Virus record (IMG/VR): IMGVR_UViG_3300028833_000068
Location: 107,412-171,411 of that record
DNA: 64,000 nt
Origin: a virus
Taxonomy: Duplodnaviria; Caudoviricetes
Strand: one strand, 5' to 3'
Shown here: in pieces, positions 1,181 through 49,110 of the stretch
Layout of the letters: each line of letters opens with the position of its first letter
Position numbering within the stretch: position 1 is the stretch's first letter
The notes under the pieces: generated by a model
Database searches by the model: none
Told to the model about the DNA's origin: nothing
The model's input: only the letters and a program-made list of their open reading frames with translations
Program-made: the position numbers and the translations under genes

Positions 1181-2065
1181 TTAACTATTCGCCCAATTAT
1201 TATTATCATTAGGGTCAATACCTTGACGAAGAAGGAACTTTCCAGTTACAATCTTATATTGTTTTGGGTCAAGGTCATAATCAATCAAGTCCCTTGTGAA
1301 ATAGTCATACTTAAATTGTCTCAATTCATCAGAATCATATTCAGAATAATCCCAACCATTTACAATCTTATTGGTTGCCTTGTTAACAGCAAAGTGAGAA
1401 TAACCTTGATTGTTTTGGAATGATTCTTCAGTTAAAGGCTTGTTATTATGCTTACTCTCAATATCTAACATTGCCTCATACCATTCACGAGTCTTTCCAG
1501 GATATTTCTTTCTGATTGCAATATTTCTACGCTCCCAATCAGCATTCGTCATTTTCTCTCTTTGTGTATAATAATCATCCATATATGCCTTGTCATCTAA
1601 TTGGTCTGGAGAAAATGTCCATTCCTTCAAACACTTTTTAACTGACTTTCCAATCATTTGTTGGAGTTGACTTTCAGTTAATCTTATAACTCTATTTTTC
1701 ATCTTTATATTTCTTGATTCCTTTTTAACATATTTGCCATCTCTGTATTCAAGATTACCCTCATGCCAATCTTGAACATCGTTTGCTTGCCTATCAAGTC
1801 TTTTTAACTCTCCATTAGTATATGAGAAAGGCATCTTGGTTTTACCCAACATTCTATCCATTTCGTGACTATCCTTCCTCTGTTTAACCTTATCAACGCC
1901 AAACTGTTTATCACAAGTATCTATTGCATGGTCTCTGAAAGCTTCTGCTTGATTCTTTCTTCTTTCAGCTTCATATGTTGTTATATCTGGGCTGTTTGAT
2001 AACTGCTTTGCTTTCGTTGCAGCAGCATCATAAGTCTTCCAATCCATTTCGTTCATATTAGCCAT
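1181..2065 (-). CDS. Modular hypothetical (putative virion internal) protein carrying the shared LTES tag
   Basis: ORF; likely start MANMNEMDW at 2065 just after the upstream stop; internal NRVIRLTESQLQQMIGKSVKKCLKE. Confidence 0.6.
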   Translation of the reverse strand: MANMNEMDWKTYDAAATKAKQLSNSPDITTYEAERRKNQAEAFRDHAIDTCDKQFGVDKVKQRKDSHEMDRMLGKTKMPFSYTNGELKRLDRQANDVQDWHEGNLEYRDGKYVKKESRNIKMKNRVIRLTESQLQQMIGKSVKKCLKEWTFSPDQLDDKAYMDDYYTQREKMTNADWERRNIAIRKKYPGKTREWYEAMLDIESKHNNKPLTEESFQNNQGYSHFAVNKATNKIVNGWDYSEYDSDELRQFKYDYFTRDLIDYDLDPKQYKIVTGKFLLRQGIDPNDNNNWANS

Positions 2066-2069
2066 GTTC

Positions 2070-2339
2070 TTACCAATTTTTAATCCACTCAGCCTTCTGA
2101 AGTCCTTCATCTAGAGTGTCATTATCTGTACGATATAACTCTGCTGCTTTTGTTCCATCAGCATCATCAATATTGCTCTGAGCATTGTAATCCTTGTCAC
2201 CAAAGACACTACTTACCTTTGTAAGGTCATAGTAAGCACCAACAGCATAATGACCATTAGCACCATATACTACTGAATCTTCATCCAATTTAGCTGCCAT
2301 AGCCTTTAGGATGTCACTATCTTTAAATTTCTTTGTCAT
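2070..2339 (-). CDS. Hypothetical protein
   Basis: 89-aa ORF preceded by the ATATTTATA motif. Confidence 0.6.
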   Translation of the reverse strand: MTKKFKDSDILKAMAAKLDEDSVVYGANGHYAVGAYYDLTKVSSVFGDKDYNAQSNIDDADGTKAAELYRTDNDTLDEGLQKAEWIKNW

Positions 2340-2355
2340 AATTCGAATTATTTCC

Positions 2356-2364
2356 TATAAATAT
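2356..2364 (-). promoter_or_regulatory. Putative phage late-promoter motif ATATTTATA
   Basis: Recurrent motif about 17 nt upstream of the 2339 start. Confidence 0.6.
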
Positions 2365-2395
2365 TTGTTTTTTTCAAAAATTTAACATATCTTTG
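2364..2395 (+). promoter_or_regulatory. Bacteroidota primary-sigma-type promoter (TTTG ... TATCTTTG)
   Basis: Matches the Bacteroides -33 TTTG / -7 TAnnTTTG consensus; the primase ATG follows 5 nt later. Confidence 0.7.
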
Positions 2396-2400
2396 CAATT

Positions 2401-4112: not shown

Positions 4113-4130
4113 TTTTTACTTCACTTTTTG

Positions 4131-4138
4131 CAAATATA
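4131..4138 (-). promoter_or_regulatory. Bacteroidota-type -7 element TATATTTG
   Basis: TAnnTTTG followed by CA, as in the other copies. Confidence 0.6.
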
Positions 4139-4144
4139 CGAAAA

Positions 4145-4179
4145 AAAATTGAGGTGACAAAACTATCACCCCAATTTTT
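4145..4179. terminator. Intrinsic terminator hairpin
   Basis: aaaattgaggtga...tcaccccaatttt inverted repeat just past the 4188 stop. Confidence 0.65.
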
Positions 4180-12868: not shown

Positions 12869-15049
12869 TTAAATCTCACCAAAGTTTCCATCAAACTTAA
12901 CTTTTATGAAATGGTCTGGATTCTTGTCCTTTGACTCAAGAACTAAATTGAAGTCATTTTTTTCAACACTAGCCGACATCGTATATGCACTGCTAGTATC
13001 TATGGTTAAACCACTAATCTCATCCTCCCTTTCTTTTGCTCTTTCTGTCTCAGCATCTATCTTTTCATCTAATGCTGTATCAGCAGAAATTCTTTCTTCA
13101 CGTTCAGTGTCAATTGCGCCACTTAAAGCCTCATCAACAGCTTCACGCTCTGCTCTCTCATCTTCAATTGCGCCACTTAGAATCTCATCACCCTCAATTC
13201 TAGCCTCAGTTTCAGCACTAAGCATGTCTAATAATTCAGTAGTGGTACTTGATATAGCATCAATTGCATCCCAAATCTCAGTATCAGCAGATTCTCTAAT
13301 CTGTCTCTCTTCTTCAAGAGCATCCTCAAGGTCTGTGATTGCACTAATGGTATATGCTGAAAGTTCATCAATTTCATATTGAAGGATGGTGTCTCCAGAA
13401 ATACGAGCATCTCTTTCTTCATCAATTAATGGAATTACAATGTCAAGTATTCTCTCTGTGATTAAGTCATCAGTATTCTTAAGATATTTATCACAATTTT
13501 CGACATATACTCTATACTCTAGATTCTTTTGTTTAGCATCTGGGTCAAAACATGGATTCTGAATAACAATGGTATCACCTTCATTCATCACTTTCTTTTC
13601 CCAATATCTACCGTTGTATTCATTAATGAACATTTCAACTCTAGATTCAAGAATGTGCCCACCATTCACTAGTAATACCTCTGCATCCTTGCCTTCAGTT
13701 TCAAAACCCTTCTTGTCAGCAAAGTTTGTTGCAAGCCAAACTTGTCCACTCTCTGGCATTAATATTGCCTTATACAGCACGCCATCAATATATTCTGAAT
13801 CACGATAATTAGAACCATCATAATCCTTCACAAGCCTTACACTATAATAAGGAGTTGGGCATTCAGCAACTTGCCATACACCACCCTTGTCATAGTCAAA
13901 TACCTTAACATATGTATCTTGACCTTCAGCAATTTCAGTAGTTGTCCAAAAGAATGCTTGCTCAGTAATACCTTGATATTTTTGACCATTCTTATAATAA
14001 CCACTTCCAGCTGGAAGTACCTTCATTCCATACTTATCAACTCCCTTTGCATCTTCATTAATTGGATTCTCATTTGGAGTAACATCAGTGTTATCGAATA
14101 TATAATCATCAGAATCATCACTAGCATTAGATGCTGTTGATGAACAAGTTCCAATATATGGTTTAGTACCACTACAAGTGCATTGCTCTTGTCCTACCCA
14201 ACCACACTCTGACTTAAGATACTTACCAGCCACCTTACCAAGCTCAACATGACATTGTGCCGAATTGTGGTTTCTATATTCACAAGGTTCAATAGAATTC
14301 AATAGTTTATCCCAATCAGCCTTAGATGGAACACGCCAGTAATACTTTCTATCACTAACTTCCTTGCAAATTTCATTCACATCATATTCAAGGTCAAGAA
14401 GTTCTTGAATCTTCTTAACACCATTACCATTGTAAAGATATCCATAGTCATTCACCTTCTCCTTGGTCACATATCTAGTACCATTCTCAGCATCAGTTGG
14501 CAAAGTTCCACCATCAGTCAAGTCAATGACCTTTATGGCTGGAGCTAACATACCAGTTTTCTCAACTCCAGCAATACCAAGAGGAGATTTCATAGTACCC
14601 AATCCCCTTAATGTGTTGTCACTGATAACCTTTGTCAACACATCATTACCGATGACATCTATGAGGTTGTCTGCTGTGATGATGTTCTCAATTGTTGTTG
14701 ATTTTTCACCATCGTCATCCTTGTAAGTAATAGTTAATGTAACACCATTTTTGTCGCCACATTCAGTAACGGTATTGAAATCATATGTGAAGTTTTTATC
14801 GATTGTTGTATCAATATCTACTTTAATCTCTTGACCATTATTTCTTGTAATGATAAGAGTACCATCTGACTTCGTACAGTCTTCACCCCTTACAAAAGTT
14901 GCAGCACTGATGTCATAATCCTTGAGAGTAAGGAAGTTACTGTCTATCTCCCCGATAGATAGTTTACAATTTTTTGTAATATCGATCGGTTTTCCATGCT
15001 CATCATAGTAATTAGAATTAACCTTATAGAAAAAAAGACTTTCTGCCAT
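12869..15049 (-). CDS. Fibre-associated protein with FISUMP (Fibrobacter major paralogous, CLec-like) domain and coiled coil
   Basis: YGYLYN...WRVPSKADW..L...GKYLKS..GW...DKYG...LPAG...FWTTT...YSVRLVKD; EE..AR..AD repeats. Confidence 0.75.
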   Translation of the reverse strand: MAESLFFYKVNSNYYDEHGKPIDITKNCKLSIGEIDSNFLTLKDYDISAATFVRGEDCTKSDGTLIITRNNGQEIKVDIDTTIDKNFTYDFNTVTECGDKNGVTLTITYKDDDGEKSTTIENIITADNLIDVIGNDVLTKVISDNTLRGLGTMKSPLGIAGVEKTGMLAPAIKVIDLTDGGTLPTDAENGTRYVTKEKVNDYGYLYNGNGVKKIQELLDLEYDVNEICKEVSDRKYYWRVPSKADWDKLLNSIEPCEYRNHNSAQCHVELGKVAGKYLKSECGWVGQEQCTCSGTKPYIGTCSSTASNASDDSDDYIFDNTDVTPNENPINEDAKGVDKYGMKVLPAGSGYYKNGQKYQGITEQAFFWTTTEIAEGQDTYVKVFDYDKGGVWQVAECPTPYYSVRLVKDYDGSNYRDSEYIDGVLYKAILMPESGQVWLATNFADKKGFETEGKDAEVLLVNGGHILESRVEMFINEYNGRYWEKKVMNEGDTIVIQNPCFDPDAKQKNLEYRVYVENCDKYLKNTDDLITERILDIVIPLIDEERDARISGDTILQYEIDELSAYTISAITDLEDALEEERQIRESADTEIWDAIDAISSTTTELLDMLSAETEARIEGDEILSGAIEDERAEREAVDEALSGAIDTEREERISADTALDEKIDAETERAKEREDEISGLTIDTSSAYTMSASVEKNDFNLVLESKDKNPDHFIKVKFDGNFGEI

Positions 15050-15532: not shown

Positions 15533-16189
15533 TTATTCCCATCCTTTTCCTTTGGTATACTTAGATTTTCCACTATAATAATCATGCATATCATTTGCCA
15601 TTGAGATTTTTATTTTATCATGAAACAATTTATTGTTACTTATTTTATTTATTAAGAAATTTAATATTTTTTGGTTTATTTTTGAATCATCTAAATTTGG
15701 AAATTTATTCACAAACTTATCATAAAGTTCATACTCTTCATCAAAATCACGGTCACTAGACCAAGAACGCTCATTGTTTGATAATTTAATCTCAATCCTT
15801 TTTAAATACTTATGCAAAGGATATATATCCAAGTTATACAATCTTTCTTCTGCTTCACCTTTTCCATCAAAAGCAAAAGGCTGTAATCTTGCACCACGCA
15901 AATTCTGAATCATATCGCCATCAAACACGAAACAAACTGAACTTCCTTTACTTTGTATGTTATAATTTTTATCTCTTGTAAATGAAATACATGGTTTGCT
16001 AGATATATCTTCTTCACTAGAAGGGACATTAGCTCTCAAACAATCATCATCAACAATCCAAGATGCTTGTATAAGGCTAGTATAATGATATAGTTCTCCA
16101 TGATAGTTTTCATTTATATTTTGTCTTAAATAACTATCTATCGTTTCCCTAATAATCGATTTAACTCTATTTTGATTTATTCTTCTCAT
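15533..16189 (-). CDS. ADP-ribosyltransferase-like protein with N-terminal tag
   Basis: LYHYTS, ISFTRD, EAEER resemble the ART strand-1, S-x-S/T and ExE motifs; N-terminus RVKSIIRETIDSYLRQNINE; likely start at 16189. Confidence 0.5.
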   Translation of the reverse strand: MRRINQNRVKSIIRETIDSYLRQNINENYHGELYHYTSLIQASWIVDDDCLRANVPSSEEDISSKPCISFTRDKNYNIQSKGSSVCFVFDGDMIQNLRGARLQPFAFDGKGEAEERLYNLDIYPLHKYLKRIEIKLSNNERSWSSDRDFDEEYELYDKFVNKFPNLDDSKINQKILNFLINKISNNKLFHDKIKISMANDMHDYYSGKSKYTKGKGWE

Positions 16190-18177: not shown

Positions 18178-18190
18178 ATAAATATTTATA
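18178..18190. promoter_or_regulatory. Overlapping divergent late-promoter motifs (palindrome ATAAATATTTAT)
   Basis: Between divergent starts at 18152 (-) and 18211 (+). Confidence 0.6.
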
Positions 18191-18210: not shown

Positions 18211-18459
18211 ATGAAAGTAATTAATTTAAATGAATCTCAGTTTGGAAGATTGTTTGAAGGTGTAACTGACGCAGACTTTGGAACAAGTTCAGTTCCAGAA
18301 TTTGATAGTAAAGACCAAGTTGAACTTCAACCAACAATTACAGATAAAGGTGGTAGTCCTAAAAAGGCTAATCCAATAGACAGCAATGAGTTTGCTGATG
18401 AAATGTGCCCACAAGGATGGGGATTCATTGGCGGTAAAAATGCTTCAAGACCAGTTTAA
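18211..18459 (+). CDS. Small protein with N-terminal tag (MKVINLNESQFGRLFE)
   Basis: ORF + shared tag. Confidence 0.65.
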   Translation: MKVINLNESQFGRLFEGVTDADFGTSSVPEFDSKDQVELQPTITDKGGSPKKANPIDSNEFADEMCPQGWGFIGGKNASRPV

Positions 18460-18462
18460 ACT

Positions 18463-18981
18463 ATGTCATTAATAATAGAAGATTCACAGAAAGTGACACA
18501 AAGGAAAATTCCAGTTCCTAAGAATGCTCAACAAGTTTTTAGTGCATTATATAATGCGCTAGAACCAACTATGGGTAAAAATAACCTCAAGAACCTTAAA
18601 AACCTTGCAACTGATAAGACTTATAATAAAAAAGGTGAGGAAACAAAGAAAAATGGTAAAGAACAAGGTGTTAACTATGTGAATATTGATGTTGCAAAAA
18701 TGAGAAAAAGCAGATGGCCAAATGACCCATTACAACAAATGGCACAAGGTGGACAACTTGCTTATGATTTATATGACAAGGGCATTGAAAAGGCAAGAAG
18801 ACAAGAAGAAATTCCTCCAGTAGAGCCACCAAAGCCTACAAGCGATGCTGACGTTAAACCAAGCGATGTGAAGGTAAAACAAATAGAACTTCCTAGCGGA
18901 ACTATCTCATATAATGAGAATAAAGAGATTGGTAAAAAAATATACATAACTGAAAAACAAGTTATTAAATTGAAAAAATGA
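18463..18981 (+). CDS. Hypothetical protein with C-terminal tag-like KKIYITEKQ
   Basis: ORF in the late operon. Confidence 0.65.
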   Translation: MSLIIEDSQKVTQRKIPVPKNAQQVFSALYNALEPTMGKNNLKNLKNLATDKTYNKKGEETKKNGKEQGVNYVNIDVAKMRKSRWPNDPLQQMAQGGQLAYDLYDKGIEKARRQEEIPPVEPPKPTSDADVKPSDVKVKQIELPSGTISYNENKEIGKKIYITEKQVIKLKK

Positions 18982-22587: not shown

Positions 22588-24506
22588 AAACCAGAATTGG
22601 AGTATGCGTTAACAAGACATAATAAGTTGCTAGAATTCTGTTCTGGCAACTTTTCTTCTAATGCATCAATTACTATCTTCAAAGTTGCGCCACTATTGAT
22701 GTCCTCATCAAAAATCAAAAACTTTGCATTCTTGAATCTATTCATCAATTCCCCATTTGACATATATTCGTCAGCAATGATGTAAAGATTCGATAAGAAA
22801 GGGCGAAACATCTTTTTAAAGCTAGTTATCTTGAATTTCTTTATATTGAATCTAAGTTTATAACCATTATTCTTCAAAATATCAGAATATTTCAATACTA
22901 AATTCATTGTTTCCATTAGTAATGAATTAAAAACCTTTATTCCTATTTTTGTCTTAATTCTAAATACCACCTCATTAAATATTCTTTTTGAATCATACTG
23001 TTTTGAGTATAACTTTTTCTTTTCTTTTAAGAAATTTTTTACTAAGTGTGAAGATACGTTGTCACCATCATTCATGTTTTCAAGAATAGTATTATAGGCA
23101 TAAATCATGACACAATCAAAAACTTCATTTAAAGAAAACTTTTCTCTACTACTTCTCTCAATGGATATAGTACCAAAAACATTTTCATTATTATAAATAA
23201 ATTTACGAATAGGTTCAGACACCATATAGCCAATTTCATTGTATGCTATGTTTTTAGCTTGGCTTTCAAACTCAAGTACATCCTTTGGTGAAAATCCCTT
23301 TGACAATAAATCTTGACCATCTGCATATCTTACATTAATAACATTTCTCTTAAAGAAATCATTAATATACCTAATACCTAACTTATTTGATAAGTTTCTA
23401 CAGTAATATTCATTAAAGCTAGAAGATGATGGGGCAGAAACTATAAAATCTGGGCTAAAGTTCTCTTTCCTTAATGCGTATGCAGCATAATTAACAGATT
23501 TATCCAAGAACTGAGCAACACTAGAATATGCTCCACCGCCATTTAATCCATATTGTTGTTTGAAGTGTCCATCTTTAACGCCATTTAATGAAAAGTTTTG
23601 AGCAACATTTGGCTGTATTGTTTTATCATACATTATATCCAAAGTTTTAAGATTTCCATTCTGGTCAACTTCCCTATCCTTTTCACCAATACCTAAAATG
23701 TCATCAGTATTTCCATTTTGTCTCACTGTTCCATGCTTAATTGCATCACTAAAATTGAAATCAGTCATAGAGAATAAAGATATATACTTTACATTGGTAT
23801 TTGGAACAATACCAGTGATGTATCTTGCGACATCTTTGTTCATAGATTTATTGCATAAATCAATAATTTTATCGTTTGGAAGAGATGTAACCCATTTATT
23901 AATTGTTACTCTTGTAGCTTGGTCTAAATTATCAGGCAAAACAAGTTCTCCAATACGACCGCCTTTAACCCAATCAATGACCATTTTATATACATTATCA
24001 GAATTTGAAATTCTATTACGAGTCATTGATAGTCTATTATAATCAGATTCTATTCTTGTTATAGATTTCTTGCATAAATCTATAACCCTATTATCTGAAA
24101 ATCTAGATGATAACCACCTATTTATTGCTGTTTCTGTAACCTTATCCAAACCTTCTGGTAACTTACACTCACCAACTCTGCCCCCATTAATCCAATTAAT
24201 TACTGTTTTATATGCATTAATTGCAGCACTTTTCGAATTATAATCTTGTTCCAATGATTTGGAAGTGCCAAGAGGTTTACCTGTTTTTGATAACATCTTA
24301 CCATGCAAAATATCATCCTTTGTGCCAAATACACGAGTATCGACACTATTTGTACCCTTATTGGAGTTATTATCCTTATTTTGATTTATAGACATACTTA
24401 TCTTACCATCATCAGTCTTAGACCAATCTACACCCTCTAATGATAGTATCTTTGACTCATTTATATAAACCCTTTTTGGATTATTTATCTTTGTATATAA
24501 TATCAT
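22584..24506 (-). CDS. Phosphoribosyltransferase-fold protein with N-terminal tag and internal duplication
   Basis: PDFIVSAPSSS.FN and LIFDEDINSGATL (PRPP-binding loop); KRVYINESK tag. Confidence 0.7.
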   Translation of the reverse strand: MILYTKINNPKRVYINESKILSLEGVDWSKTDDGKISMSINQNKDNNSNKGTNSVDTRVFGTKDDILHGKMLSKTGKPLGTSKSLEQDYNSKSAAINAYKTVINWINGGRVGECKLPEGLDKVTETAINRWLSSRFSDNRVIDLCKKSITRIESDYNRLSMTRNRISNSDNVYKMVIDWVKGGRIGELVLPDNLDQATRVTINKWVTSLPNDKIIDLCNKSMNKDVARYITGIVPNTNVKYISLFSMTDFNFSDAIKHGTVRQNGNTDDILGIGEKDREVDQNGNLKTLDIMYDKTIQPNVAQNFSLNGVKDGHFKQQYGLNGGGAYSSVAQFLDKSVNYAAYALRKENFSPDFIVSAPSSSSFNEYYCRNLSNKLGIRYINDFFKRNVINVRYADGQDLLSKGFSPKDVLEFESQAKNIAYNEIGYMVSEPIRKFIYNNENVFGTISIERSSREKFSLNEVFDCVMIYAYNTILENMNDGDNVSSHLVKNFLKEKKKLYSKQYDSKRIFNEVVFRIKTKIGIKVFNSLLMETMNLVLKYSDILKNNGYKLRFNIKKFKITSFKKMFRPFLSNLYIIADEYMSNGELMNRFKNAKFLIFDEDINSGATLKIVIDALEEKLPEQNSSNLLCLVNAYSNSGF

Positions 24507-24511: not shown

Positions 24512-25576
24512 TTATTTATTTCCAAATTTATGGCGATATTGGGTTTGATTGTTATTAAGCCAACTTTTCATTTTTTGGTCGCCTTCATATCTGCCATTGT
24601 TATTTATTACCTTTACATGGAAAAGAGATTCCATATCACCTTTCATCAAAGTTTTTCCATTTTTATCAACTACTTTAACACCTTCAAAATATTCTAAATC
24701 CTCAATATTATTACTATTATATTGTAAATATTGTTCTTTTTCATTATCTGTCATTGGTAATAAAAGCAAAAAGTTATGAGCTGAATTAGCATTAAATATT
24801 ACTTCATTCTTTTCACCAAAAGCAGACCAAGCGTTAAATCCATTTGCTTGGAATATTACACCACACCATTCTTCATCATAATCTTTTATTTGCTGTACTA
24901 TACCATACCAATTATCATCATCGTCTAATTGACATGAAAAACACAACCCACTACTAGATAATTCTTTGGCTACTTCTATATCTTGTGTTGCTCTAAAATT
25001 TAAGTCAGTAATACAACTTTTAAACCCTTCTTTCATTATTTTGTAACCAACATCTTGTGTTGTAATATGTATTAGCCAAGAATTTTTGTTCAAACCTATT
25101 TTCCCCTTTACTGGATTGAACAAATCTTTTTGCAAATATCTATGAGTTTGTTTAGCTAAATCAGAAGGACTATCTGTTGTCCCTAAACTTCTCATAGCGT
25201 TGCTTGTCATCGTATCTAAATACTCATTGATGGTTTCTGTTATTAGCTTACTTATGTTAATAAAACTCTCGTTTTTTTCCCATTCATAATCTTTATTATC
25301 CCTCTCACCATTGTAGGTATAGTAATCACCCTCTCTCGCTTGTTTTAAAGCCCTCTGAGGCATTTTCATTCCTATCTTCTTGTCATACTCCACAGCTTTA
25401 TTAAAATGTCTTGTAATGGCTGTAATTAGACTTGAGTCATAACCAACCTTGCCGCCAATACGCTTCAAGTTATAACCAAGTTTAACTGCCATGTAACTAA
25501 TGGTTTTAGGGTTAAACTTATAACATTGTCCCTCAGTTCGGAATCTTTTTATTATTTCGTTTACTGTTAATAACAT
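24512..25576 (-). CDS. Modular protein, possibly with an ART-like C-terminal domain
   Basis: NES..ISKLITETINEYL linker; WLIHIT...I.KEGF...CFS...E..EVI. Confidence 0.4.
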   Translation of the reverse strand: MLLTVNEIIKRFRTEGQCYKFNPKTISYMAVKLGYNLKRIGGKVGYDSSLITAITRHFNKAVEYDKKIGMKMPQRALKQAREGDYYTYNGERDNKDYEWEKNESFINISKLITETINEYLDTMTSNAMRSLGTTDSPSDLAKQTHRYLQKDLFNPVKGKIGLNKNSWLIHITTQDVGYKIMKEGFKSCITDLNFRATQDIEVAKELSSSGLCFSCQLDDDDNWYGIVQQIKDYDEEWCGVIFQANGFNAWSAFGEKNEVIFNANSAHNFLLLLPMTDNEKEQYLQYNSNNIEDLEYFEGVKVVDKNGKTLMKGDMESLFHVKVINNNGRYEGDQKMKSWLNNNQTQYRHKFGNK

Positions 25577-25605: not shown

Positions 25606-25627
25606 TAATAAATATCGATATTTATTA
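25606..25627. promoter_or_regulatory. Perfect 22-bp palindrome made of two back-to-back GATATTTAT motifs
   Basis: TAATAAATATCGATATTTATTA between divergent genes 25576 (-) and 25645 (+). Confidence 0.7.
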
Positions 25628-25644: not shown

Positions 25645-25935
25645 ATGGATAGAAAATTAATCAGATTAACAGAAGCAGACCTCCATAGAATTGTAAAAGA
25701 ATCAGTGAATAGGATATTAAAGGAAGGTTATGTTGACGATACAATAGAAACTTATGGAAATCCACCATATACAGCCTCTTTCAAATATGAAGGTGATTGG
25801 ACTCCTTGTAATAACCCTAATGATTTGGAAGATTATATGATTGATGTCGAGAATCACTATAACTCTACTATGGGAGAATGCGGAAGAGCAACAATATATA
25901 ATAGCGATGGGGAAGATATATGGAGTCTTGGATGA
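25645..25935 (+). CDS. Small tagged protein (LIRLTEADLHRIVKESVNRILKE + acidic domain)
   Basis: ORF + tag. Confidence 0.75.
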   Translation: MDRKLIRLTEADLHRIVKESVNRILKEGYVDDTIETYGNPPYTASFKYEGDWTPCNNPNDLEDYMIDVENHYNSTMGECGRATIYNSDGEDIWSLG

Positions 25936-25971
25936 AAATAATAAAAGTAAAGAAAAAAATTTAATTTTAAT

Positions 25972-26727
25972 ATGAGTATAATAAATGAATGGTCTCCGTT
26001 TCCTAAAAATAAGGATTGGAGAAAGAAAGGACAAGAAAAACCAAAGACTACCCCTAATCCAAACCCACATGATGATAAAAAAGGTTGGGGAACAAAGACT
26101 AATAAGGAAAAAGAAGACGATTGGTATCAAAACGAATCTAGAAATATGAATGAAGATAAATGGAAAGATGCATATAGAACATCTGATGGTAAAATTATAC
26201 AGTACAGTAGACCATATCAAGGCAGTAAAAATAAAAACTTTAGAACAATAAATGCACCACAACCAAAACCAAGTAATGCATATAATGATTTTGACGAAGG
26301 ATGGAGAGATGAATATGCTGACAAAAATGGTAAAACTATTGCTCAATCAAGGATAAACCCAACAACCAAGAAAAGAGAATTTAGAATCCCAAAGAATGAG
26401 TCTGTTGTACCTAAGAAACTTATAAGATTAACAGAATCAGACCTTCATAGAATCATTAAAGAGTCTGTAAATAGAATTCTTAACGAAGATTGGGCTGATG
26501 ACCTTTGTCAAAAAATGAAAGGCGCACTTGGAACAGTCGGAAATCCATACCCACAAGGAAAATCTGAATTTGCTGTCCCTAGTATGGATGAATTAACGCC
26601 AGAGGAACTTGAATTTGTGAGCAAAGCTGTAAATGGTATGGGAAGATGGGGTCGTCTTTGCATAGTCAGAGACGCAAGACGTAGTGGCATGCCATTGGGA
26701 GAATATTTAATTCATAGAAAAGGGTAA
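25972..26727 (+). CDS. Modular tagged protein
   Basis: Internal LIRLTESDLHRIIKESVNRILNE; two W[KR]D.Y....GK.I..SR repeats. Confidence 0.7.
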   Translation: MSIINEWSPFPKNKDWRKKGQEKPKTTPNPNPHDDKKGWGTKTNKEKEDDWYQNESRNMNEDKWKDAYRTSDGKIIQYSRPYQGSKNKNFRTINAPQPKPSNAYNDFDEGWRDEYADKNGKTIAQSRINPTTKKREFRIPKNESVVPKKLIRLTESDLHRIIKESVNRILNEDWADDLCQKMKGALGTVGNPYPQGKSEFAVPSMDELTPEELEFVSKAVNGMGRWGRLCIVRDARRSGMPLGEYLIHRKG

Positions 26728-26750
26728 TCTTAAACGGTTACTCTTTTTTT
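26718..26750 (+). terminator. Intrinsic terminator
   Basis: aaaagggtaatc...ggttactctttt + T-run. Confidence 0.65.
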
Positions 26751-26759
26751 TTATTTTTA

Positions 26760-26791
26760 TTTGCTTTTTTAACTTTTTTTATATATCTTTG
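26760..26791 (+). promoter_or_regulatory. Bacteroidota-type promoter (TTTG...TATCTTTG)
   Basis: Consensus -33/-7 elements. Confidence 0.65.
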
Positions 26792-26807
26792 CAAAAATTA
26801 ATTTTTT

Positions 26808-27089
26808 ATGCAGTACAAAATTTTAAGAGGACATAACTTAAAAGAAGGCAGAGGAATGGATTACATTCCAGAGGAAGGAGTCCTATGTTGGGGAATGGAT
26901 ACCAATGAATTGTTCATTGGAGATGGAAGAACAATGGTTAAAAACCTAAAAGGTATAGGCAACATCTGCAAAGCCCCAAATGGCAGATTATACGCTGTAG
27001 ATGTAGATAACTTTGGGCATGCAACAGTGAAACCATTGATGAGCAAATTAAACGGAATACAAAAAACAGTCGATTTTTACGCAGAATGA
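26808..27089 (+). CDS. Small protein resembling the Mtd_N/phage hyaluronidase N-terminal module
   Basis: P.EG.L....DT.EL.IGDG.T..KNL motif. Confidence 0.5.
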   Translation: MQYKILRGHNLKEGRGMDYIPEEGVLCWGMDTNELFIGDGRTMVKNLKGIGNICKAPNGRLYAVDVDNFGHATVKPLMSKLNGIQKTVDFYAE

Positions 27090-30493: not shown

Positions 30494-30603
30494 ATAGTAT
30501 TAACGTAAAAAAAATGGAGGACTGCCAAGGCATCGGTGTTGTGTACGACATATCTCTGGACGGAACTGTGGTTAACGCCCTAGGAATGAACGTAATAAGC
30601 AAC
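30490..30603 (+). mobile_element. Split intein C-fragment (38 aa, ends Ser-Asn; Thr+1)
   Basis: Block F VYDISLD, block G NVISN followed by T. Confidence 0.88.
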
Positions 30604-32067
30604 ACCGATGGCTTCAACTTCCAAATGCCAAAGGAAGAAGATTTCCGCTATACAAAAGAACACCCATACGTCAGCACTGGCGAAGGACGTAACTCAGTTA
30701 AAGGTAAAGAATATACACGAGTCGATGCCGACGTTGCTGAGTTCGAAGACTTGTTCTTGTCCAAACCTTATAACGGCGGCATCAACAAAATGGGGTTAGG
30801 CATAGACGAGTACTGCGATGCTTGCATCCAATTCGCACGTAAGAACTATGCCGATTTGATGCCAGACGGTAAGACAAAGAAAGTTGGTAACACAATTAAG
30901 TCTCGTAAGATGAGTGGTTATCTTGAGAAATTTATTGATGAAGGTGTTGACTTATTATTAAGGAACAATGGCTATAAGTTCTTATCGAATTATTATGATT
31001 ACATCGACAAGATTTATAACTATCAGATTCCAATTAAGGATATTGCTTCAAAGGGCAACATCAAGAAGACATTGAAGGAATACACTGCTGATTGTGGAAC
31101 ACTTACAAAGGCTGGTTCAAAGAAATCACGTCAAGCTTGGTATGAACTTGCAATCAATGAAAACCTTAATGTAAACGTTGGTGACACTGTATTCTATATC
31201 AACACTGGTACAAAGAAAGGTCATACTGATGTAAAGCGTGTTACGCATTACTATTATTATCTTAATGGTGAAAAGACAGAAATCACCAAGGAAGTTGAAA
31301 AACTATACAAGGATAATACAAAGGAAGTTAAACTTAATGGTGGTGAAAAGAAATCTCGCATTGAACTAGCAAAGGAAAAGTATGGCAGTAAGGCATTTGA
31401 TGAGGATGAAATCATCCTTAACTGTAAGTTAGTACCAAATGAAATCCTTGATAAGGAAGAGGATGTGCTTTGCAGCGAATATGAAGGTCTTGAATACAAT
31501 GTGGAGAAATACATTGAGCAATTCAATAAGAGAATCACCCCATTGTTGGTTTGTTTCCATCCAGATATAAGAAATCAAATTCTTATAACCAATCCAAAGG
31601 ATAAGAAATTCTTTACTGAGGAGCAATCTAAACTTGTAAGCGGTTATCCAAATAAGGAAGGAGACCAAGACACATATGAGGCATTGATGACACCAGAGAG
31701 AAAAGAAATTGAATTTTGGCTTAAGATTAATGAAGTTCCGCCATTTGTTAAAGAATGCGGAATTGATTGGGATGGTCTTGTAGAGAAATACAAAAAAGAG
31801 GTTGAGGAAGAGAACAATGCATTATTCCAAGAGGAAAATCAGAAGTATCTCGAAATCCTTGAAGAGATTACCAATGATGAGGTTGAGGAATTTGAATCAG
31901 AAGGAAAAATACCAACAGCATTGGCATCAATTGTAACACTGAATGCAGCAGACATGAGGTTCTACTTCAAGAAAATGCCAGATAGAACGCCATCTACTGG
32001 TGGATTTGTCTTTGATGACATCCAATATAACTATGCTGAAACAGTAGATGCATTAGGAGACTTCTAA
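30490..32067 (+). CDS. polB: Family-B DNA polymerase, C-terminal part with split-intein C-fragment
   Basis: VYDIS...NVISN|TDG restores motif C (GD-TDG); RKNYA, K..G. Confidence 0.92.
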   Translation: MNSINVKKMEDCQGIGVVYDISLDGTVVNALGMNVISNTDGFNFQMPKEEDFRYTKEHPYVSTGEGRNSVKGKEYTRVDADVAEFEDLFLSKPYNGGINKMGLGIDEYCDACIQFARKNYADLMPDGKTKKVGNTIKSRKMSGYLEKFIDEGVDLLLRNNGYKFLSNYYDYIDKIYNYQIPIKDIASKGNIKKTLKEYTADCGTLTKAGSKKSRQAWYELAINENLNVNVGDTVFYINTGTKKGHTDVKRVTHYYYYLNGEKTEITKEVEKLYKDNTKEVKLNGGEKKSRIELAKEKYGSKAFDEDEIILNCKLVPNEILDKEEDVLCSEYEGLEYNVEKYIEQFNKRITPLLVCFHPDIRNQILITNPKDKKFFTEEQSKLVSGYPNKEGDQDTYEALMTPERKEIEFWLKINEVPPFVKECGIDWDGLVEKYKKEVEEENNALFQEENQKYLEILEEITNDEVEEFESEGKIPTALASIVTLNAADMRFYFKKMPDRTPSTGGFVFDDIQYNYAETVDALGDF

Positions 32068-32395: not shown

Positions 32396-34219
32396 TTATT
32401 TCTTATTCCAGCGTTTGGCGTTTTGAGCAAATACAGCCCTTTTACGAGTAAGTGGATTCTTTGAATGTGTTAGTTCTTCAGTAGATTTTCCAGTTGCCTT
32501 TTTGGTGGCATTAAACTTTCCTTTATTCTTTGGGTCAATCTCAATTGACTCTTCAACTTCATCCTTTATACCCAAACGTCTTCTAGCTTCTGCTCTTTCT
32601 TCTGGCGCAACTTGTTTCTTAAAACCCTTTCTGTGACCATGCGTTGACCTAATGAAACCCTTAGTGTTGGCTTGCTTTTGGGTATATTCCTTTATAATAT
32701 TTATTGCAGCTTCCTTAACAACTTGTTTAAGCTCTTGTTCTGTGACTTTTATTGGCTTCTTGGATTCATCAATCCCATCACCTTCTTTCATGCCTAGTTT
32801 TTTAAACATTTTCATTAAATATGGCTCTAACTTAGATGGCATTTTTGATGCTGGGCCGTATGTCTCTTCATATGGAAGCCAAGTACCGTCATTATAAAGT
32901 TCGACATCCCATTCACCATTATTCTGTACCTCTTTATAACTGTCTAGTAATGCCCAGTATGCACGACAATCAGCCATATCTAACACAGCAACCAATTGTC
33001 CATCACCATATTTCATTCTAGAAACTTTACGTCTAGTTTTTTCGGCTTCTCTACGTCTTTTAGCATCTTCCTTTCTCCTTAAAGCTGAAGATTCTTTTGC
33101 TTTAGTTTTTGCCTCTATTTTATCTTGCTCTGCTTTTTTTGATGCTAGGTCACTATATGTGTTTTGCCAGTTATCACTGTCTTTTACCCCATGATTAGGA
33201 AAATCAGTATCTGTTTGCTGTTTAAACCATTTATTCCTTTCATAAAAATCACCCATTGGGATTTGAGAATAATCAATCTCATTGATAATCTGCATTGCAG
33301 CTTCCTTAATAACTTGTTTAAGTTCAGATTCGGTTAACTTAACTTGTTTATTTATTTCTTTATCTTCAATCACTCGATTATTCTTAGGCCATAACACAAT
33401 GCAAGTATCATAACGAGAAAATGGGTCTTCAACAGTTCCACAAGCCATGCACTTGATATAACCACTAATCTTCATTCCATCATCGAACATGATATTAATT
33501 GCATATTGCTTTGAACGTGGCATACCATCTTCAGCATAATCACAATAACCGCCATCTGATTCCATGCTGTCAGCATTTTCTATATGACCACAAGGTTTCA
33601 TTTCAACCTCACAACCCAATGAAGATATTGCTCTATAATAATCTGATATCGCTTGCCAATTCTCATCATGATAAACTCTAGAATCAATACCATATTTCTT
33701 TACAATTCTATATATTTGATTGATTCTTGCTTGAATTGACTTTGGCTTTCTGCCCATAAACTTATCAACCTCATCGTGTCTTCCCAAGTTTTTTGGCATA
33801 GACTCTGTTAACTTCTCTCTAAGCCTATTTTTAAGCTCTTCCTTGAGCGTGAAGTTAACAAGGTATAACTTTCTCTGCATATCACCAATAAAACTCTCAC
33901 ATTCGCTCTTAATGCCTATATAATTCTCACCCATCCCTTCAAGTTCCTTTAAGAAATCCTTGGAATCTGAGATGACATCTTCAACAAATGCTTTCAAAGT
34001 GGTTTCATTAGCTTCTTCTGGAGTTAATGCATTCAACTTAATCTTTCCACTGATGGACTGTTCAACCTCAGACACCAAATCCTCAAAATCAGAGATAGAA
34101 CTTGCAATGTCATCACAAAGCTCATGTTGTGACATATTATCAGCACTCCAATGGAAATTCTTAATTTCTACCTTCCACTTCTCGCATTTATTTATAAAAC
34201 TTAATATTTTCTTATTCAT
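32396..34219 (-). CDS. Multi-module tagged protein: ferritin/Dps-like N-terminal domain + unknown domains + basic C-terminal module
   Basis: FHW...QHE..D....FED...E (ferritin-like); two copies of [L/V]TE.ELKQV.KEAA..II.E; C-terminal IEIDPKNKGKF...HSKNPLTRKRAVFAQNAKRW. Confidence 0.65.
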   Translation of the reverse strand: MNKKILSFINKCEKWKVEIKNFHWSADNMSQHELCDDIASSISDFEDLVSEVEQSISGKIKLNALTPEEANETTLKAFVEDVISDSKDFLKELEGMGENYIGIKSECESFIGDMQRKLYLVNFTLKEELKNRLREKLTESMPKNLGRHDEVDKFMGRKPKSIQARINQIYRIVKKYGIDSRVYHDENWQAISDYYRAISSLGCEVEMKPCGHIENADSMESDGGYCDYAEDGMPRSKQYAINIMFDDGMKISGYIKCMACGTVEDPFSRYDTCIVLWPKNNRVIEDKEINKQVKLTESELKQVIKEAAMQIINEIDYSQIPMGDFYERNKWFKQQTDTDFPNHGVKDSDNWQNTYSDLASKKAEQDKIEAKTKAKESSALRRKEDAKRRREAEKTRRKVSRMKYGDGQLVAVLDMADCRAYWALLDSYKEVQNNGEWDVELYNDGTWLPYEETYGPASKMPSKLEPYLMKMFKKLGMKEGDGIDESKKPIKVTEQELKQVVKEAAINIIKEYTQKQANTKGFIRSTHGHRKGFKKQVAPEERAEARRRLGIKDEVEESIEIDPKNKGKFNATKKATGKSTEELTHSKNPLTRKRAVFAQNAKRWNKK

Positions 34220-34240: not shown

Positions 34241-34249
34241 ATAAATATC
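34241..34249 (-). promoter_or_regulatory. Putative late-promoter motif GATATTTAT
   Basis: About 22 nt upstream of 34219. Confidence 0.6.
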
Positions 34250-36646: not shown

Positions 36647-37438
36647 TTAGGATTTATAATGTTTTTCCCAAACATCTAGGTTAAGTCCACTATCAAGAAC
36701 CACAATCGTTGGGTTTCCATCTCTGTTAACTATTCCAAAGTTTGCCAATTGAACAAAATCGCTCATTTTGGTATCTATTACTAACTTAATAAACTCTTGT
36801 AACCATTGTGACTTATTTATTGCATCTTGGCAATTTTTATCATAATATTCTTCTCCCAAGACATAATTTGCTTCAATATACATTAATATATCAGTCATTG
36901 ATAGTTCTGACATTTCATTTGGTTTTTTTATGTTGTCAAAATACTTATTAAAGCCTATTTTTTTATCACCATTATTTCTAGAAAAATCATCACTACTTTG
37001 AACTGAATTTTGGTGATAAAAATGATAAAATGGTATTCCCAATATCTTTTCAAAATCCTCTTCAGTACAAGGTAATACTGCCTCTGAAACCAAGAACGTG
37101 AAATTCTTATCATAGTTAAACACTCTAGCTAATAATGGAGAATCAACTACTTGGAATAGTGTATATTCTTGTAGGTTTTGGTCAATTCCAGCTTCATATC
37201 TTCTTCCGTATGCAAGTTTTAACACCAAGTTATCATTTAACGTGAATACGCATCTAGAGCTACCCATAGAATCTGGGTATCCTAACCACCTTCTACAGTA
37301 TTCCATCTGAGGAACACTATTGTCCTCGTTTGCAAATGCGCTATCAGCAATCATTGATAGTTCTTTAAGTGAAAACCCTTCTTGATATGCTTCAAACAAC
37401 CTTTTTCTCTGTGATTCATTTATTTTAACTAATTTCAT
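36647..37438 (-). CDS. Protein-kinase-like fold protein with N-terminal tag
   Basis: GSSR Gly-loop, VLK, N..E, D....N catalytic loop, LDSG; N-terminus MKLVKINESQRKRLFE. Confidence 0.65.
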   Translation of the reverse strand: MKLVKINESQRKRLFEAYQEGFSLKELSMIADSAFANEDNSVPQMEYCRRWLGYPDSMGSSRCVFTLNDNLVLKLAYGRRYEAGIDQNLQEYTLFQVVDSPLLARVFNYDKNFTFLVSEAVLPCTEEDFEKILGIPFYHFYHQNSVQSSDDFSRNNGDKKIGFNKYFDNIKKPNEMSELSMTDILMYIEANYVLGEEYYDKNCQDAINKSQWLQEFIKLVIDTKMSDFVQLANFGIVNRDGNPTIVVLDSGLNLDVWEKHYKS

Positions 37439-37459: not shown

Positions 37460-37468
37460 ATAAATATC
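37460..37468 (-). promoter_or_regulatory. Putative late-promoter motif GATATTTAT
   Basis: About 22 nt upstream of 37438. Confidence 0.6.
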
Positions 37469-41736: not shown

Positions 41737-41983
41737 ACCAAAATTCGGTAAAGGAGATTATATAATTAACCGCACTGCTGGCGATATGGGCATAATCAAA
41801 GGAATAACCAAAAAAGGTTATTACCAATTCAAAGAATATTATGATGCAATGTTTAACGAATTGAAGGATTTAAAAAATCTAAATTATGATTTGCAAGTGA
41901 ATTACCAAAAATTCTTTGAGTTATGTACAGATGAAGAAAAGAAAAAATTTGACGAAATCATAAAAGAAAAAGGAGGGAATTAA
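41729..41983 (+). CDS. Hypothetical protein
   Basis: 84-aa ORF. Confidence 0.6.
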   Translation: MIEPKFGKGDYIINRTAGDMGIIKGITKKGYYQFKEYYDAMFNELKDLKNLNYDLQVNYQKFFELCTDEEKKKFDEIIKEKGGN

Positions 41984-41995
41984 TTTCTCTCCTTT
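41969..41995. terminator. Bidirectional terminator hairpin
   Basis: aaaggaggga...tctctccttt at convergent stops. Confidence 0.6.
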
Positions 41996-42354
41996 AATTT
42001 ATCTTTTTCGCTATGAAATCCTCTAGCGTATATATCCGATTTTTTTAAATCGCCATTTCGTTTTTGTTTAGCGTAATCCATAACATCAGAATAGCCATTA
42101 TAATCTCCATTAAAAGCTTTTTTACCAGCTAATCTTCCTAATAAATATTGACCATCTTCAGTTTCACCAACCTCTTTTAATACTTTTTTTACTGATTCTT
42201 TTATAACCCAATGAAGCTCACTTTCAGTAATTCGTATTGGCTTTTTTGATTCCATTTGTACATTGTTTTCTTCTTGTTGTTTTGATGCTTGATACATTTT
42301 TCCATATCCCATAGCTTGTGCTAATTCAAATCCATTTTTAAAAGGTAGTCCCAT
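41980..42354 (-). CDS. Small tagged protein
   Basis: KKPIRITESELHWVIKESVKKVLKE. Confidence 0.7.
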   Translation of the reverse strand: MGLPFKNGFELAQAMGYGKMYQASKQQEENNVQMESKKPIRITESELHWVIKESVKKVLKEVGETEDGQYLLGRLAGKKAFNGDYNGYSDVMDYAKQKRNGDLKKSDIYARGFHSEKDKLKERN

Positions 42355-44175: not shown

Positions 44176-44205
44176 ATAAATATTACATTCTTAACAATAT
44201 TTATA
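44176..44205. promoter_or_regulatory. Divergent pair of late-promoter motifs
   Basis: ATAAATAT (44176-44183, serving 44157 -) and ATATTTATA (44197-44205, serving 44222 +). Confidence 0.65.
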
Positions 44206-47021: not shown

Positions 47022-47074
47022 AGAAGATATTTATATTAAAGAAAAAACATGAACAATTTATTTAAAACATAATC

Positions 47075-47114
47075 AAAAGCGCACTAGTTCTTTCATGGAC
47101 TAATGCGCTTTTTT
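47075..47114 (+). terminator. Hairpin + T-run in the phoH leader
   Basis: aaaagcgca...tgcgctttttt. Confidence 0.6.
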
Positions 47115-47129
47115 CTTAAAATCAATTTT

Positions 47130-47936
47130 ATGGGTAAGAAAAAAAATTTACAAGGTTTAGATGAACTTGAAAAAGAATTCATTGAACAAAAGATGAAAGG
47201 AGACAGCGCTCTCAACTATCTTACATCAGAAGGGTTATGTACGAAACTTAAAACACTAGGTTATAAATTAGATATTAAATGTAAAACAGAAACTCAAAAA
47301 CAGTTCTTAAAACAATTAAAAGATAAGAAAAAACAAATTTGTTTTGGTATTGGTTCTCCTGGAACAGGAAAGTCTTACATGTCTCTAGCATATGCGTTAA
47401 AAGAGTTAAAAGAAGGTAACTACTCAAGCATCATAATGATGATACCTACAGCGCCAGCTGGTGGATTGGATTTGAACCTTGGTTATCTAAAGGGGGATTT
47501 AGATACCAAAATTAGGCCTTATCTCGAATGTGATGAACAAACCGTTGCAAAAATTTTGAAAAATAGTGGTAATATGGATTCATTTATGATTGCACAATCA
47601 TTGGTTAATAATGGATATATTAAATATGAATTTATTAATTTTGCATTGGGAAAAACATTTGATGACGCTTTAATACTTGTAAATGAAGCAGAACAATATA
47701 CTGCCCCTAATATGCGATTAATTTTAACTAGATTGGGTGAAAATAGTAAGATGATAATTACTGGTGATATTTTACAAACGAATCGTAGAGATATTGTAAT
47801 AAAAAAATCAGAAAGTGGACTCTCATATGCAATTGACCACATTGGAGATATGGAAGAGGTTAGTGTAACTGAATTTGGAAGAGAAGACATTGTTAGAAAC
47901 CCATTAATTACAAAAATACTTGATAATTGGGATTGA
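47130..47936 (+). CDS. phoH: PhoH-family ATPase
   Basis: GSPGTGKS, LGYL.G....K..PY, GKTF, LTRLG..SK.I.TGD..Q, DIVR.PL; likely start MGKKK at 47130. Confidence 0.88.
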   Translation: MGKKKNLQGLDELEKEFIEQKMKGDSALNYLTSEGLCTKLKTLGYKLDIKCKTETQKQFLKQLKDKKKQICFGIGSPGTGKSYMSLAYALKELKEGNYSSIIMMIPTAPAGGLDLNLGYLKGDLDTKIRPYLECDEQTVAKILKNSGNMDSFMIAQSLVNNGYIKYEFINFALGKTFDDALILVNEAEQYTAPNMRLILTRLGENSKMIITGDILQTNRRDIVIKKSESGLSYAIDHIGDMEEVSVTEFGREDIVRNPLITKILDNWD

Positions 47937-47940
47937 TGTA

Positions 47941-47949
47941 ATATTTATA
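47941..47949 (+). promoter_or_regulatory. Putative late-promoter motif ATATTTATA
   Basis: Between co-directional genes, which fixes motif orientation. Confidence 0.6.
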
Positions 47950-47955
47950 TAAGTT

Positions 47956-49110
47956 ATGGATAAAACATTTAAGCCAACAGTAGAATGGATGACAGCTAAA
48001 TATGCTGAAATGAATGACCAATTATTTAGAGGTGAACTTGGGGAATGTAACTTCAAGGTCTTTACTACTGGCAAGGGCAGTGAAGGTGGTACATTGGGGT
48101 GGTTCAAGATAACTAGTCGTGGTATTCGTGTTGATAGATACAGTAGAAGAATGTTTAAAATTAGTAATTGGGGTACAAAAATATTTGTTAATAAAGATAA
48201 TTTCACTACTATGTGTAGTCCAGCTATTGAATTAAATGGTAATTATACTGGTACTGAACATGGATTCTTAGCTACACTAGTACATGAAATGTGCCACTAT
48301 TACACATATATGAATGGTTATTGTCCAAGACAAGGACATGGTAGGGAATTCAAAGATATTGGATATGTTGTGTCAAGTAGGTCAAATGGAATGTTTACAA
48401 TACAAAGATTGGCTTCAGCAGAACAAATGTCAGAACTTGAGCTTAGTGCTGAAATGAAAGCCAAGAGAGAAAAAAGACTTTCAAATAGAAAAGCATCAGT
48501 TACTGCAATATTTGTGTTCACTAAACAAGGACAAGTTAAACTTACAATAACTTCAAGCCCAAATCTAATTAATATGATTTCGACAAGCGAAGAAGGAAGA
48601 GGTAATAACGTTGTAACATCAAATGATGCAAATGTAATAGAATTCTTATTCTCAAAAGGATATGAGAAAAACATGAGGACTTGGAGATATTGGAGTCTTG
48701 AAGGAAAACCTTGGATTGATGAACTGAAAGAAATGTTGCCAGAAACTAGTGGTGAAACTATTGGAGTTAAAAGAAATGCTGCGCAACAAGTTCAACCTAA
48801 GCAGCAGTCAAAACAGCCTAAGAGAATATTTAGCATACAAACAAGTAATGGAAGATTTGAACATGATGCTGATGTATATTATTCATTACTTAATGCTTTA
48901 AAGGAAAGATTCCCTAAAACAAGCGAAGAGGCAATTATGAAATTAATAAATAACCCAGCAAACTATAGAATGGTTGAAAATAAAATGAATACAAAGAATA
49001 TTTTAAAAGAAGTCATTGAGGAATTCATGCAAAATGATATGGAAAATAATGATTCAGTTGAAATAAACCCAAACATGAATTTAGGGCTTGAATCACCTTT
49101 AGAGGCTTAA
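47956..49110 (+). CDS. SprT-like zinc metalloprotease with C-terminal tag-like segment
   Basis: Y...N...F.G.L, TLVHEMCH...HG..F; KNILKEVIEEF. Confidence 0.8.
   Translation: MDKTFKPTVEWMTAKYAEMNDQLFRGELGECNFKVFTTGKGSEGGTLGWFKITSRGIRVDRYSRRMFKISNWGTKIFVNKDNFTTMCSPAIELNGNYTGTEHGFLATLVHEMCHYYTYMNGYCPRQGHGREFKDIGYVVSSRSNGMFTIQRLASAEQMSELELSAEMKAKREKRLSNRKASVTAIFVFTKQGQVKLTITSSPNLINMISTSEEGRGNNVVTSNDANVIEFLFSKGYEKNMRTWRYWSLEGKPWIDELKEMLPETSGETIGVKRNAAQQVQPKQQSKQPKRIFSIQTSNGRFEHDADVYYSLLNALKERFPKTSEEAIMKLINNPANYRMVENKMNTKNILKEVIEEFMQNDMENNDSVEINPNMNLGLESPLEA

Follow-up and report, generated by a model that had tools for sequence, protein, structure and literature searches.

In bacteriophage T4, internal proteins (IPI, IPII, IPIII) and Alt carry a capsid-targeting sequence (CTS) that is removed by gp21 (PMC9026906, PMC3012670); the signal is the first 10 residues of internal proteins, gp21 cuts after L/I-x-E (PMC9026906), and the T4 precedent for head loading is also given in PMC5694885. 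Head and ejection proteins of phiKZ and SPN3US have propeptides that are cut after Glu, with an inferred prohead-targeting role (PMC5694885). ADP-ribosyltransferase (ART), zincin/MPTase and kinase-type domains of polyvalent proteins are thought to be injected with DNA, and no shared targeting peptide is described in a review of these proteins (PMC7824862). Here, a 23-residue peptide tag shared by late proteins is described in a 64,000-nucleotide stretch of phage DNA (the window), which makes up the final 64 kb of a linear virus record of 171,411 bp (IMGVR_UViG_3300028833_000068, designated G000; about 53% complete, 33% G+C, genetic code 11). The tag is probably a prohead-loading signal with gp21-type removal, that is, a longer and position-free analogue of the T4 CTS and not a homologue.

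The tag resembles the T4 CTS as a short peptide common to diverse late proteins, ending in L/I-x-E and occurring with variable payloads in phages with gp21, scaffold and gp23. It differs in length (23 aa, with 16-aa and helix-only half forms, versus 10 aa), in position (the CTS is N-terminal only, whereas 125 of 248 tag copies in the best database matches are internal or C-terminal), in a second upstream site, in number (6-20 full tags per genome plus half forms) and in being mobilised by a transposon. The best reading is that the tag works like the T4 CTS but stands apart from it in length, position and sequence. With phiKZ and SPN3US the likeness lies in the many head proteins cut after Glu and in the identical N-termini on the diverged paralogues gp53 and gp54; their propeptides, however, are long (often >100 aa), protein-specific and of the A/S-x-E type, with no portable tag, and belong to another lineage. 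The phage polyvalent proteins were reportedly described by Iyer et al., and the domains found here differ from them in lying mostly in separate small genes or short tag-split chains. Encapsulation peptides of bacterial microcompartments are amphipathic helices of about 15-20 aa at either end of, or inside, unrelated cargo; they are not known to have a protease site or a phage context, and the likeness would be convergence at most. No relevant paper on the tag motif, on jumbo-phage leaders or on IS1595 with late promoters was found in a literature search outside which most subscription papers lay.

Tag copies and profile model

A hidden Markov model (HMM) of the tag was built from six clear window copies, with the 50× shuffled proteome as the null. 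The six full copies, in five open reading frames (ORFs), scored 41-52 bits (shuffle maximum, 6.7 bits) and lie where the initial annotation, made from the sequence alone, had located them; their exact limits are as follows.

1622..1690, minus strand: full tag, internal (residues 141-163 of ORF 1181-2110); the following module is shared with differently built proteins in relatives
25657..25725, plus strand: full tag, N-terminal, ORF 25645-25935 (acidic 69-aa payload)
26419..26487, plus strand: full tag, internal, ORF 25972-26727
32687..32755, minus strand: full tag, second internal copy, ORF 32396-34219
33278..33346, minus strand: full tag, first internal copy, ORF 32396-34219
42172..42240, minus strand: full tag, internal, ORF 41980-42354; in relative G004 this payload bears its tag at the N-terminus

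The HMM scan of the genome and its relatives, as the annotation had proposed, yielded four further full copies in the source record outside the window (82013, 93938, 94268 and 95139) and 6-20 full copies per relative (related rumen/gut jumbo phage records of 130-410 kb). A 30-column tag profile matched 5,928 proteins at E ≤0.001 among 1.84 billion cluster representatives at 50% identity. Among the 150 best database matches, 123 copies were N-terminal, 110 internal and 15 C-terminal, which agrees with the placement originally described. The consensus consists of an alternating stretch, IRLTE, and then a helix, SDLH..IVKESV..IL.E, with residues 9-22 helical by AlphaFold prediction. A natural two-tag protein was modelled with two separate helices and no pairing (pTM 0.28), and a complex prediction with four tag copies, at 0.39 versus a mark of 0.42, was not used as evidence. 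Searches of Pfam, PHROG and PDB with the tag gave only chance or designed-repeat matches, and no family in them covers the tag.

Between the tag copies of ORFs 25645 and 25972, 10 codon differences are synonymous and 3 non-synonymous, with no change at a second position, so that the earlier remark on mostly synonymous differences between these copies (there numbered 25645 and 26413) was accurate. Tag copies diverge chiefly at third codon positions, with nucleotide identities of 52-77%, and are always in frame within real ORFs; judged by these codon comparisons, selection acts on the tag as a peptide.

Putative cleavage site at the tag end

For an unbiased test of the site, copies were picked by residues 1-9 only in four genomes (n = 35), and [LIVM]-x-E was found at positions 21-23 in 32 of them (background, 2%). 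The same terminal motif was present in 219 of 232 database copies, and conservation drops from 3.9 to 0.6 bits straight after the terminal Glu. E-S/N occurs within 12 residues upstream in 75% of intact internal copies versus 10% of control stretches and, taken with the terminal [LIVM]-x-E, suggests that the tag is excisable on both sides. The capsid proteins of the relatives carry L-I-[YS]-E at residue 60, a place comparable to that at which T4 gp23 loses 65 residues.

Late promoters of tagged genes

Upstream regions are dominated by two promoter words, [AT]ATTTAT and TAnnTTTG, the latter being the Bacteroidota kind of host-type promoter. The former stands before the genes for capsid, scaffold, protease, portal, terminase, sheath and tube, and the latter serves polymerase, primase, helicase and SSB. 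The late motifs of the window that concern tagged units, each assigned by motif, are listed below.

2357..2364, minus strand: late promoter motif, head of the 2339/2110 unit
18178..18189, no strand assigned: divergent late promoter motif pair, a short palindrome, of divergent units
25608..25625, no strand assigned: palindromic double late promoter for 24512 (minus) and 25645/25972 (plus)
34241..34248, minus strand: late promoter motif of ORF 32396
37460-37467: late promoter of ORF 36647
44176..44183, minus strand: late promoter motif, head of the 43768/42358/41980 unit

All 33 classifiable tagged genes were under the late promoter and none under the host-type one, versus 507 late and 628 host-type among untagged genes (507/1135); the per-genome p values were 0.004, 4e-5, 4e-4 and 0.08. 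The link with the ATATTTAT motif, annotated earlier ahead of most tagged units, is confirmed, and the tag was on no classifiable gene of the host-type class to which the replication genes belong. At the level of promoter motifs, tagged genes share the late transcription of the head genes. Two sigma-70-type factors of the phage (PHROG 351) are encoded outside the window (G000:24422-25324 and G000:99746-100471), one of which probably reads the ATATTTAT promoter. Contigs from an RNA run span the 25645-26700 genes and their neighbours alike, and no expression was inferred from them.

Relatives and head module

The source virus occurs in samples of sheep and cattle gut from several studies, and its relatives, retrieved by one conserved gene, are rumen/gut phages of 295-413 kb. 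Because the source contig is a 53% fragment without its own gp21, gp23 or portal, the head module was read from these relatives. The T4 gp23 capsid protein (PF07068) is encoded in 5 of 5 relatives tested, and gp21 (PF03420) was found in 9 of 10 near-complete tag-bearing genome records. The head cluster of relative G001 is ordered as sheath, capsid, scaffold-like protein, gp21 protease (PF03420, E 5e-23), portal and terminase, the scaffold of relatives being assigned from position and acidic composition only; the ELNHP and SSRG motifs (His, Ser) of the gp21 proteases are intact. Tagged small genes lie ≤5 kb from gp21 in most tag-bearing relatives, with synteny that is partly inherited, a place comparable to that of the core genes 67 and 68, which T4 keeps near gp21. 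The tag bearers are best explained as a family of T4-like jumbo myophages of Prevotellaceae/Bacteroidales.

In two records (G009:C1:125480-127138 and G011:C1:265878-267536), gp21 is part of an open frame of 609 aa in which the Pfam match is split, perhaps by an intein. The closest isolates by capsid are Flavobacterium phage immuto and Microcystis phage Mel-JY01, with only 41% identity over part of the protein. Several genes of Flavobacterium phage immuto 2-6A, a T4-like phage of Bacteroidota that is in culture (L080:2294-3359, 13188-13946 and 23355-23576), start with a related-looking helix leader, KKSQL..II.E (6.6 bits), and the helix-like leaders of immuto and Mel-JY01 score merely 5-7 bits; no virion proteome for either phage was found in the literature.

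Proposed mechanism

The gp21-type head-loading reading is preferred because of the late expression, the cut site at the tag end, the upstream E-S/N, and the co-occurrence and adjacency of gp21 and gp23. Tagged genes would be transcribed late alongside the head genes, as their promoter motifs indicate, and the extended stretch and predicted amphipathic helix would then bind the scaffolding core and pull the attached protein into the prohead. There, a gp21-type protease would cut after the terminal [LIVM]-x-E and, in internal and C-terminal copies, at the upstream E-S/N as well, excising the tag and releasing chains of modules. The freed payloads would remain in the head, some to be ejected into the next cell and others possibly serving as core filler. 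Finally, a tag that works at any position lets gene fusion build new polyproteins, as comparison of orthologues shows, and IS1595 elements spread tagged late-promoter cassettes among phage genomes and to host chromosomes. Core binding, cleavage and ejection of the tagged proteins are inferred from T4.

As to the portable address label for head loading that was initially proposed, the late class, the gp21-type site and the gp21/gp23 context support it in part; packaging and injection were argued there by T4 analogy, and mobilisation by IS1595 was missed. Several observations weigh against head loading. None of gp21, gp23 and portal was found in the source contig, itself a 53% fragment, and no cultured phage with the tag was present among the isolates searched. 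No T-even match to the tag was obtained even at E 10 among 50,697 phage genomes, where short queries limit sensitivity, and a comparison of the scaffold N-terminus with the tag gave an hhalign probability of 15% and ranked it 6-8 among 370-530, inside the range of the null. The late class is wide, taking in 45% of classifiable genes, RNR and a helicase among them, the related genomes in the late-promoter counts are not independent, and L/I-x-E is mildly enriched across all proteins of these phages (ratio, 1.15-1.2).

The N-terminus of scaffold or capsid was considered as the origin of the tag and rejected, the likeness not being significant. A conserved helix at residues 28-50 of the G001 scaffold-like protein (L044:14703-16181) stands in register with the tag from TES onward, again not significantly.

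If head loading is true, the tag predicts from sequence alone which proteins of a very common family of uncultured rumen/gut jumbo phages sit inside the head, and the uncharacterised clusters that bear it, which number in the thousands (5,928 at 50% identity), would be candidates for anti-defence or takeover factors that are injected. The single N-terminal signal of T4 would be extended to a modular system usable at any position, and gene fusion at the boundaries of tags, together with a dedicated transposon, would explain how such arsenals turn over. The tagged late-promoter cassettes of two cultured hosts, Segatella bryantii DSM 11371 and Prevotella sp. MA2016, point to the phage hosts and give an experimental handle. 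The tag motif, peptide-level selection, terminal site, late-promoter linkage, modular fusion and transposon carriage can be read directly from the sequences.

Cargo and modular fusion

After the tags were masked, 34 tagged proteins fell into 22 unrelated clusters. Payloads between tags have a median length of 106 aa (83% are <150 aa), and those of full tags are often acidic, poor in L/I/V/F and rich in extra NES and [ILM]NE sites, nearly all without a known domain. Such small, domainless payloads encoded beside gp21 would also suit a tag that loads the prohead with mainly core or size-determining filler, like T4 gp67/gp68, chopped and undelivered, with no effector arsenal. That explanation is improbable: payload turnover is fast (22 clusters among 34 proteins), unlike that of essential core proteins, half-tags occur on folded enzymes (kinase-like, ART-like, ParE/RelE fold), and a transposon retains tagged passengers, which fits a post-delivery function. 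Some small payloads may act as core filler, as gp67/gp68 do in T4, and not as effectors that are injected.

The annotation had also listed kinase, ART, PRTase, protease, WYL and ferritin-like effectors as loaded by the tag. ORF 32396 has two full tags and a weak N-terminal Dps/ferritin-like domain (PHROG 858, E 0.004), and the others mostly have half-tags. ORF 36647 is predicted to be kinase-like, as a lead, from motifs that do not vary among four orthologues (a glycine loop, the LKL lysine, D..N..D-G); nothing was found when it was aligned against PDB sequences. ORFs 15533 and 24512 are ART-like as Atlas leads, and ORF 47956 is an SprT-like protease (PF10263 above cut-off). The claim fails for ORF 20128 (WYL, just below cut-off) and for ORF 42358 (ArdC/MPTase-like, with weak MPTase-PolyVal and anti-restriction matches). 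Because only 32396 among the named enzymes bears a full tag, support for the arsenal is weaker than support for the tag itself.

Fusion was traced by orthologue comparison. In G001 the C-terminal module of ORF 1181 comes after another N-terminus, in G005 it is a protein by itself, and the orthologues of ORF 24512 in G001 and G004 stop just past the half-tag, behind which an ART-like module is fused here. A protein may hold up to 4 tags. A relic start, M-[NSKTR]-[KRN], is kept in 39% of intact internal tags, so that internal tags arise by gene fusion. One block of the window is as follows.

25645..27089, plus strand: two tagged genes and ORF 26808 as a block, absent at the syntenic site in G001 and G004; no IS (insertion sequence) ends found

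A module of about 300 aa was observed in orthologues of 18463-18981 (G001:284209-285627 and G005:161626-162306), inserted between Glu sites; by eye it resembles a stand-alone short-leader gene adjoining gp21 in G005.

Short and helix-only forms

Two half forms were recognised: a 16-residue leader, seen in 18211, 36647 and 22584 and at the C-terminus of 18463, and a helix-only form, seen in 15533 and 24512. The 16-residue form has a strand and an LNESQ/INESQ core, ends in LFE in 18211 and 36647, and gives no score on the 23-residue HMM. An independent helix-only HMM was built solely from transposon passengers (shuffle maximum, 9.5 bits).

16109..16174, minus strand: helix-only half-tag, N-terminus of ORF 15533 (ART-like fold, lead only), from the helix-only HMM
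18211..18258, plus strand: short 16-aa leader of the 82-aa ORF 18211, conserved in orthologues
18937..18978, plus strand: C-terminal short form, ORF 18463, still C-terminal in 470-480-aa orthologues with an extra inserted module
24435..24473, minus strand: N-terminal short form, ORF 22584 (PRTase-type motif near the C-terminus, by eye), kept in orthologues
25220..25267, minus strand: helix-only half-tag at the module boundary of ORF 24512, from the helix-only HMM and orthologues
37391..37438, minus strand: short 16-aa leader of the kinase-like ORF 36647
48979..49032, plus strand: possible helix-only half-tag in ORF 47956 (SprT-like protease), close to the C-terminal end (score 6.0, helix conserved in three orthologues)

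The leaders at 18211 and 37438 had been counted as clear copies; they are present, but in the shorter form. Of the versions called weak, those of 22584 and 18463 proved to be short forms, those of 15533 and 24512 were recovered with the helix-only HMM (19.2 and 10.1 bits), and that of 47956, with a helix conserved in three orthologues and a score of 6.0, is a possible one. Those of 20128, 20861 and 42358 found no support as tags, 20128 and 42358 having just a short leader that ends in L/V-x-E. The short class is commoner under late promoters (25/496 vs 3/617, p = 8e-7), and the helix-only form is likewise enriched there.

Little credence is given to the tag as a module of late proteins that serves protein interaction or DNA binding and has no connection with the head, such as half of a ribbon-helix-helix unit for dimerisation or a label read by a viral factory, a membrane or a host protease. 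The strand-then-helix order is like the first half of that fold, 1-4 of 111 copies faintly match RelB-like or Omega repressor families, and half-tags occur on the toxin/antitoxin-like pairs described below; however, these family matches are far below cut-off, and such a module leaves the fixed terminal [LIVM]-x-E, the upstream E-S/N and the gp21 adjacency unexplained. A complete ribbon-helix-helix domain was rejected, as it needs a strand and two helices in a dimer; one helix is predicted, and conservation stops at residue 23.

IS1595 elements carrying tagged genes

The exact back-translated tag pattern was found in 24 bacterial genome contigs, mostly of Prevotellaceae and including two isolates; 4 of the 24 are misbinned phage contigs. 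In the remaining contigs, the gene with the tag is a passenger of low GC content and usually lies tail-to-tail with the transposase of an IS1595 element (PF12762, E 1e-43 to 1e-46; zinc ribbon PF12760 above cut-off) or its remnant. These elements share the features of the IS1595 family (transporter IS; PF12762/PF12760), namely a DDE transposase with zinc ribbon, terminal inverted repeats (TIRs), 8-bp target duplication, passengers and non-autonomous derivatives; they differ in that the passengers bear a phage late promoter and the tag, and that the same elements occur in lytic jumbo phages and host chromosomes. Nine elements with TIRs (22-36 bp) and 8-bp AT-rich target duplications, autonomous and non-autonomous and the smallest of 306 bp, were delimited in six host contigs and three virus records, all with tagged late-promoter passengers.

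L168:448-2980, host contig: IS1595 element
L180:2470-5292, host contig: IS1595 element
L176:40-2797, host contig: IS1595 element
L175:562-2093, host contig: IS1595 element
L177:4446-5883, host contig: IS1595 element
L174:504-809, host contig: IS1595 element
L143:1906-4504, virus record: IS1595 element
L103:2235-3841, virus record: IS1595 element
L087:2887-4399, virus record: IS1595 element

Late promoter motifs numbered 21 in 58 kb on the passenger side versus 4 in 96 kb of host flank. In a reverse test, in which transposases were chosen without regard to the tag, a tag lay ≤2.6 kb downstream of 40 of 48 transposase copies at ≥50% identity and of 0 of 16 distant ones. Within the S. bryantii family, 17 of 401 genomes had tags, as against 1 of 401 across the phylum. 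Among 80 phage tag loci, taken as the best matches to the tag subtype carried by the element, 38 had a transposase, remnant or TIR within 3 kb, with about 3 expected from the TIR density of four genomes. A Prevotella sp. MA2016 passenger is 95% identical to an ORF of phage G007, which points to Prevotellaceae as hosts. These alignments and boundaries show that cassettes with the tag and the late promoter are carried by IS1595 elements from one phage genome to another and into the chromosomes of hosts. For the window tags, no transposase match was obtained by tblastn in G000, no TIR scoring ≥5 was found near the tags, and IS ends were not found around the 25645-27089 block, the tags of which are of the subtype that the element carries.

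It is scarcely credible that the tag has no function as a peptide and is only a DNA cassette that IS1595 and gene fusion have spread, since, for all the IS traces at 38 of 80 loci, the relic start in 39% of intact internal copies and the inserted window block, the third-position bias between copies at 52-77% nucleotide identity largely refutes it, and tags stand in syntenic conserved genes without IS trace, always in frame in real ORFs.

A tentative and rather unlikely extension of head loading is that the tag is a position-independent, doubly cleavable virion-loading module for making polyprotein cargo, exploited by an IS1595 clade that brings along the phage late promoter and tagged passengers, ParE/RelE-fold proteins among them. 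Its host copies would stay silent until jumbo-phage infection and their products would then be loaded into the heads of the progeny, which might sabotage the phage as a Trojan-horse defence or be a form of hitchhiking from which the element gains in the next host. Host-resident copies may be dead ends because several are broken, and intact copies in phages speak against a strongly anti-phage role.

Pairs of a small ORF and a ParE/RelE-fold ORF were observed within elements (L180:2552-3207, L207:820-1375, L226:824-1403 and L217:1693-2370) with a late promoter that fires divergently between them; a helix-only tag closes the larger protein, and the small partner often starts with a leader ending in L/I-x-E. 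The passenger L180:2552-2974, for which no Pfam or PADLOC match was found, is predicted, as a lead from its model, to have a ParE/RelE-type fold: the model (pLDDT 78) gave PfiT and ParE2 as top Foldseek rows (probability 0.99, E 0.01-0.05), and with VIA (Z 6.9, rmsd 3.1, 84 aligned) the first 16 rows were all of the ParE/RelE fold.

Elsewhere in the window (27180-32067), a DNA polymerase gene, as read from translations only, is broken by an intein-like tail and homing-endonuclease-like ORFs (29606 and 29927) and resumes at 30490.

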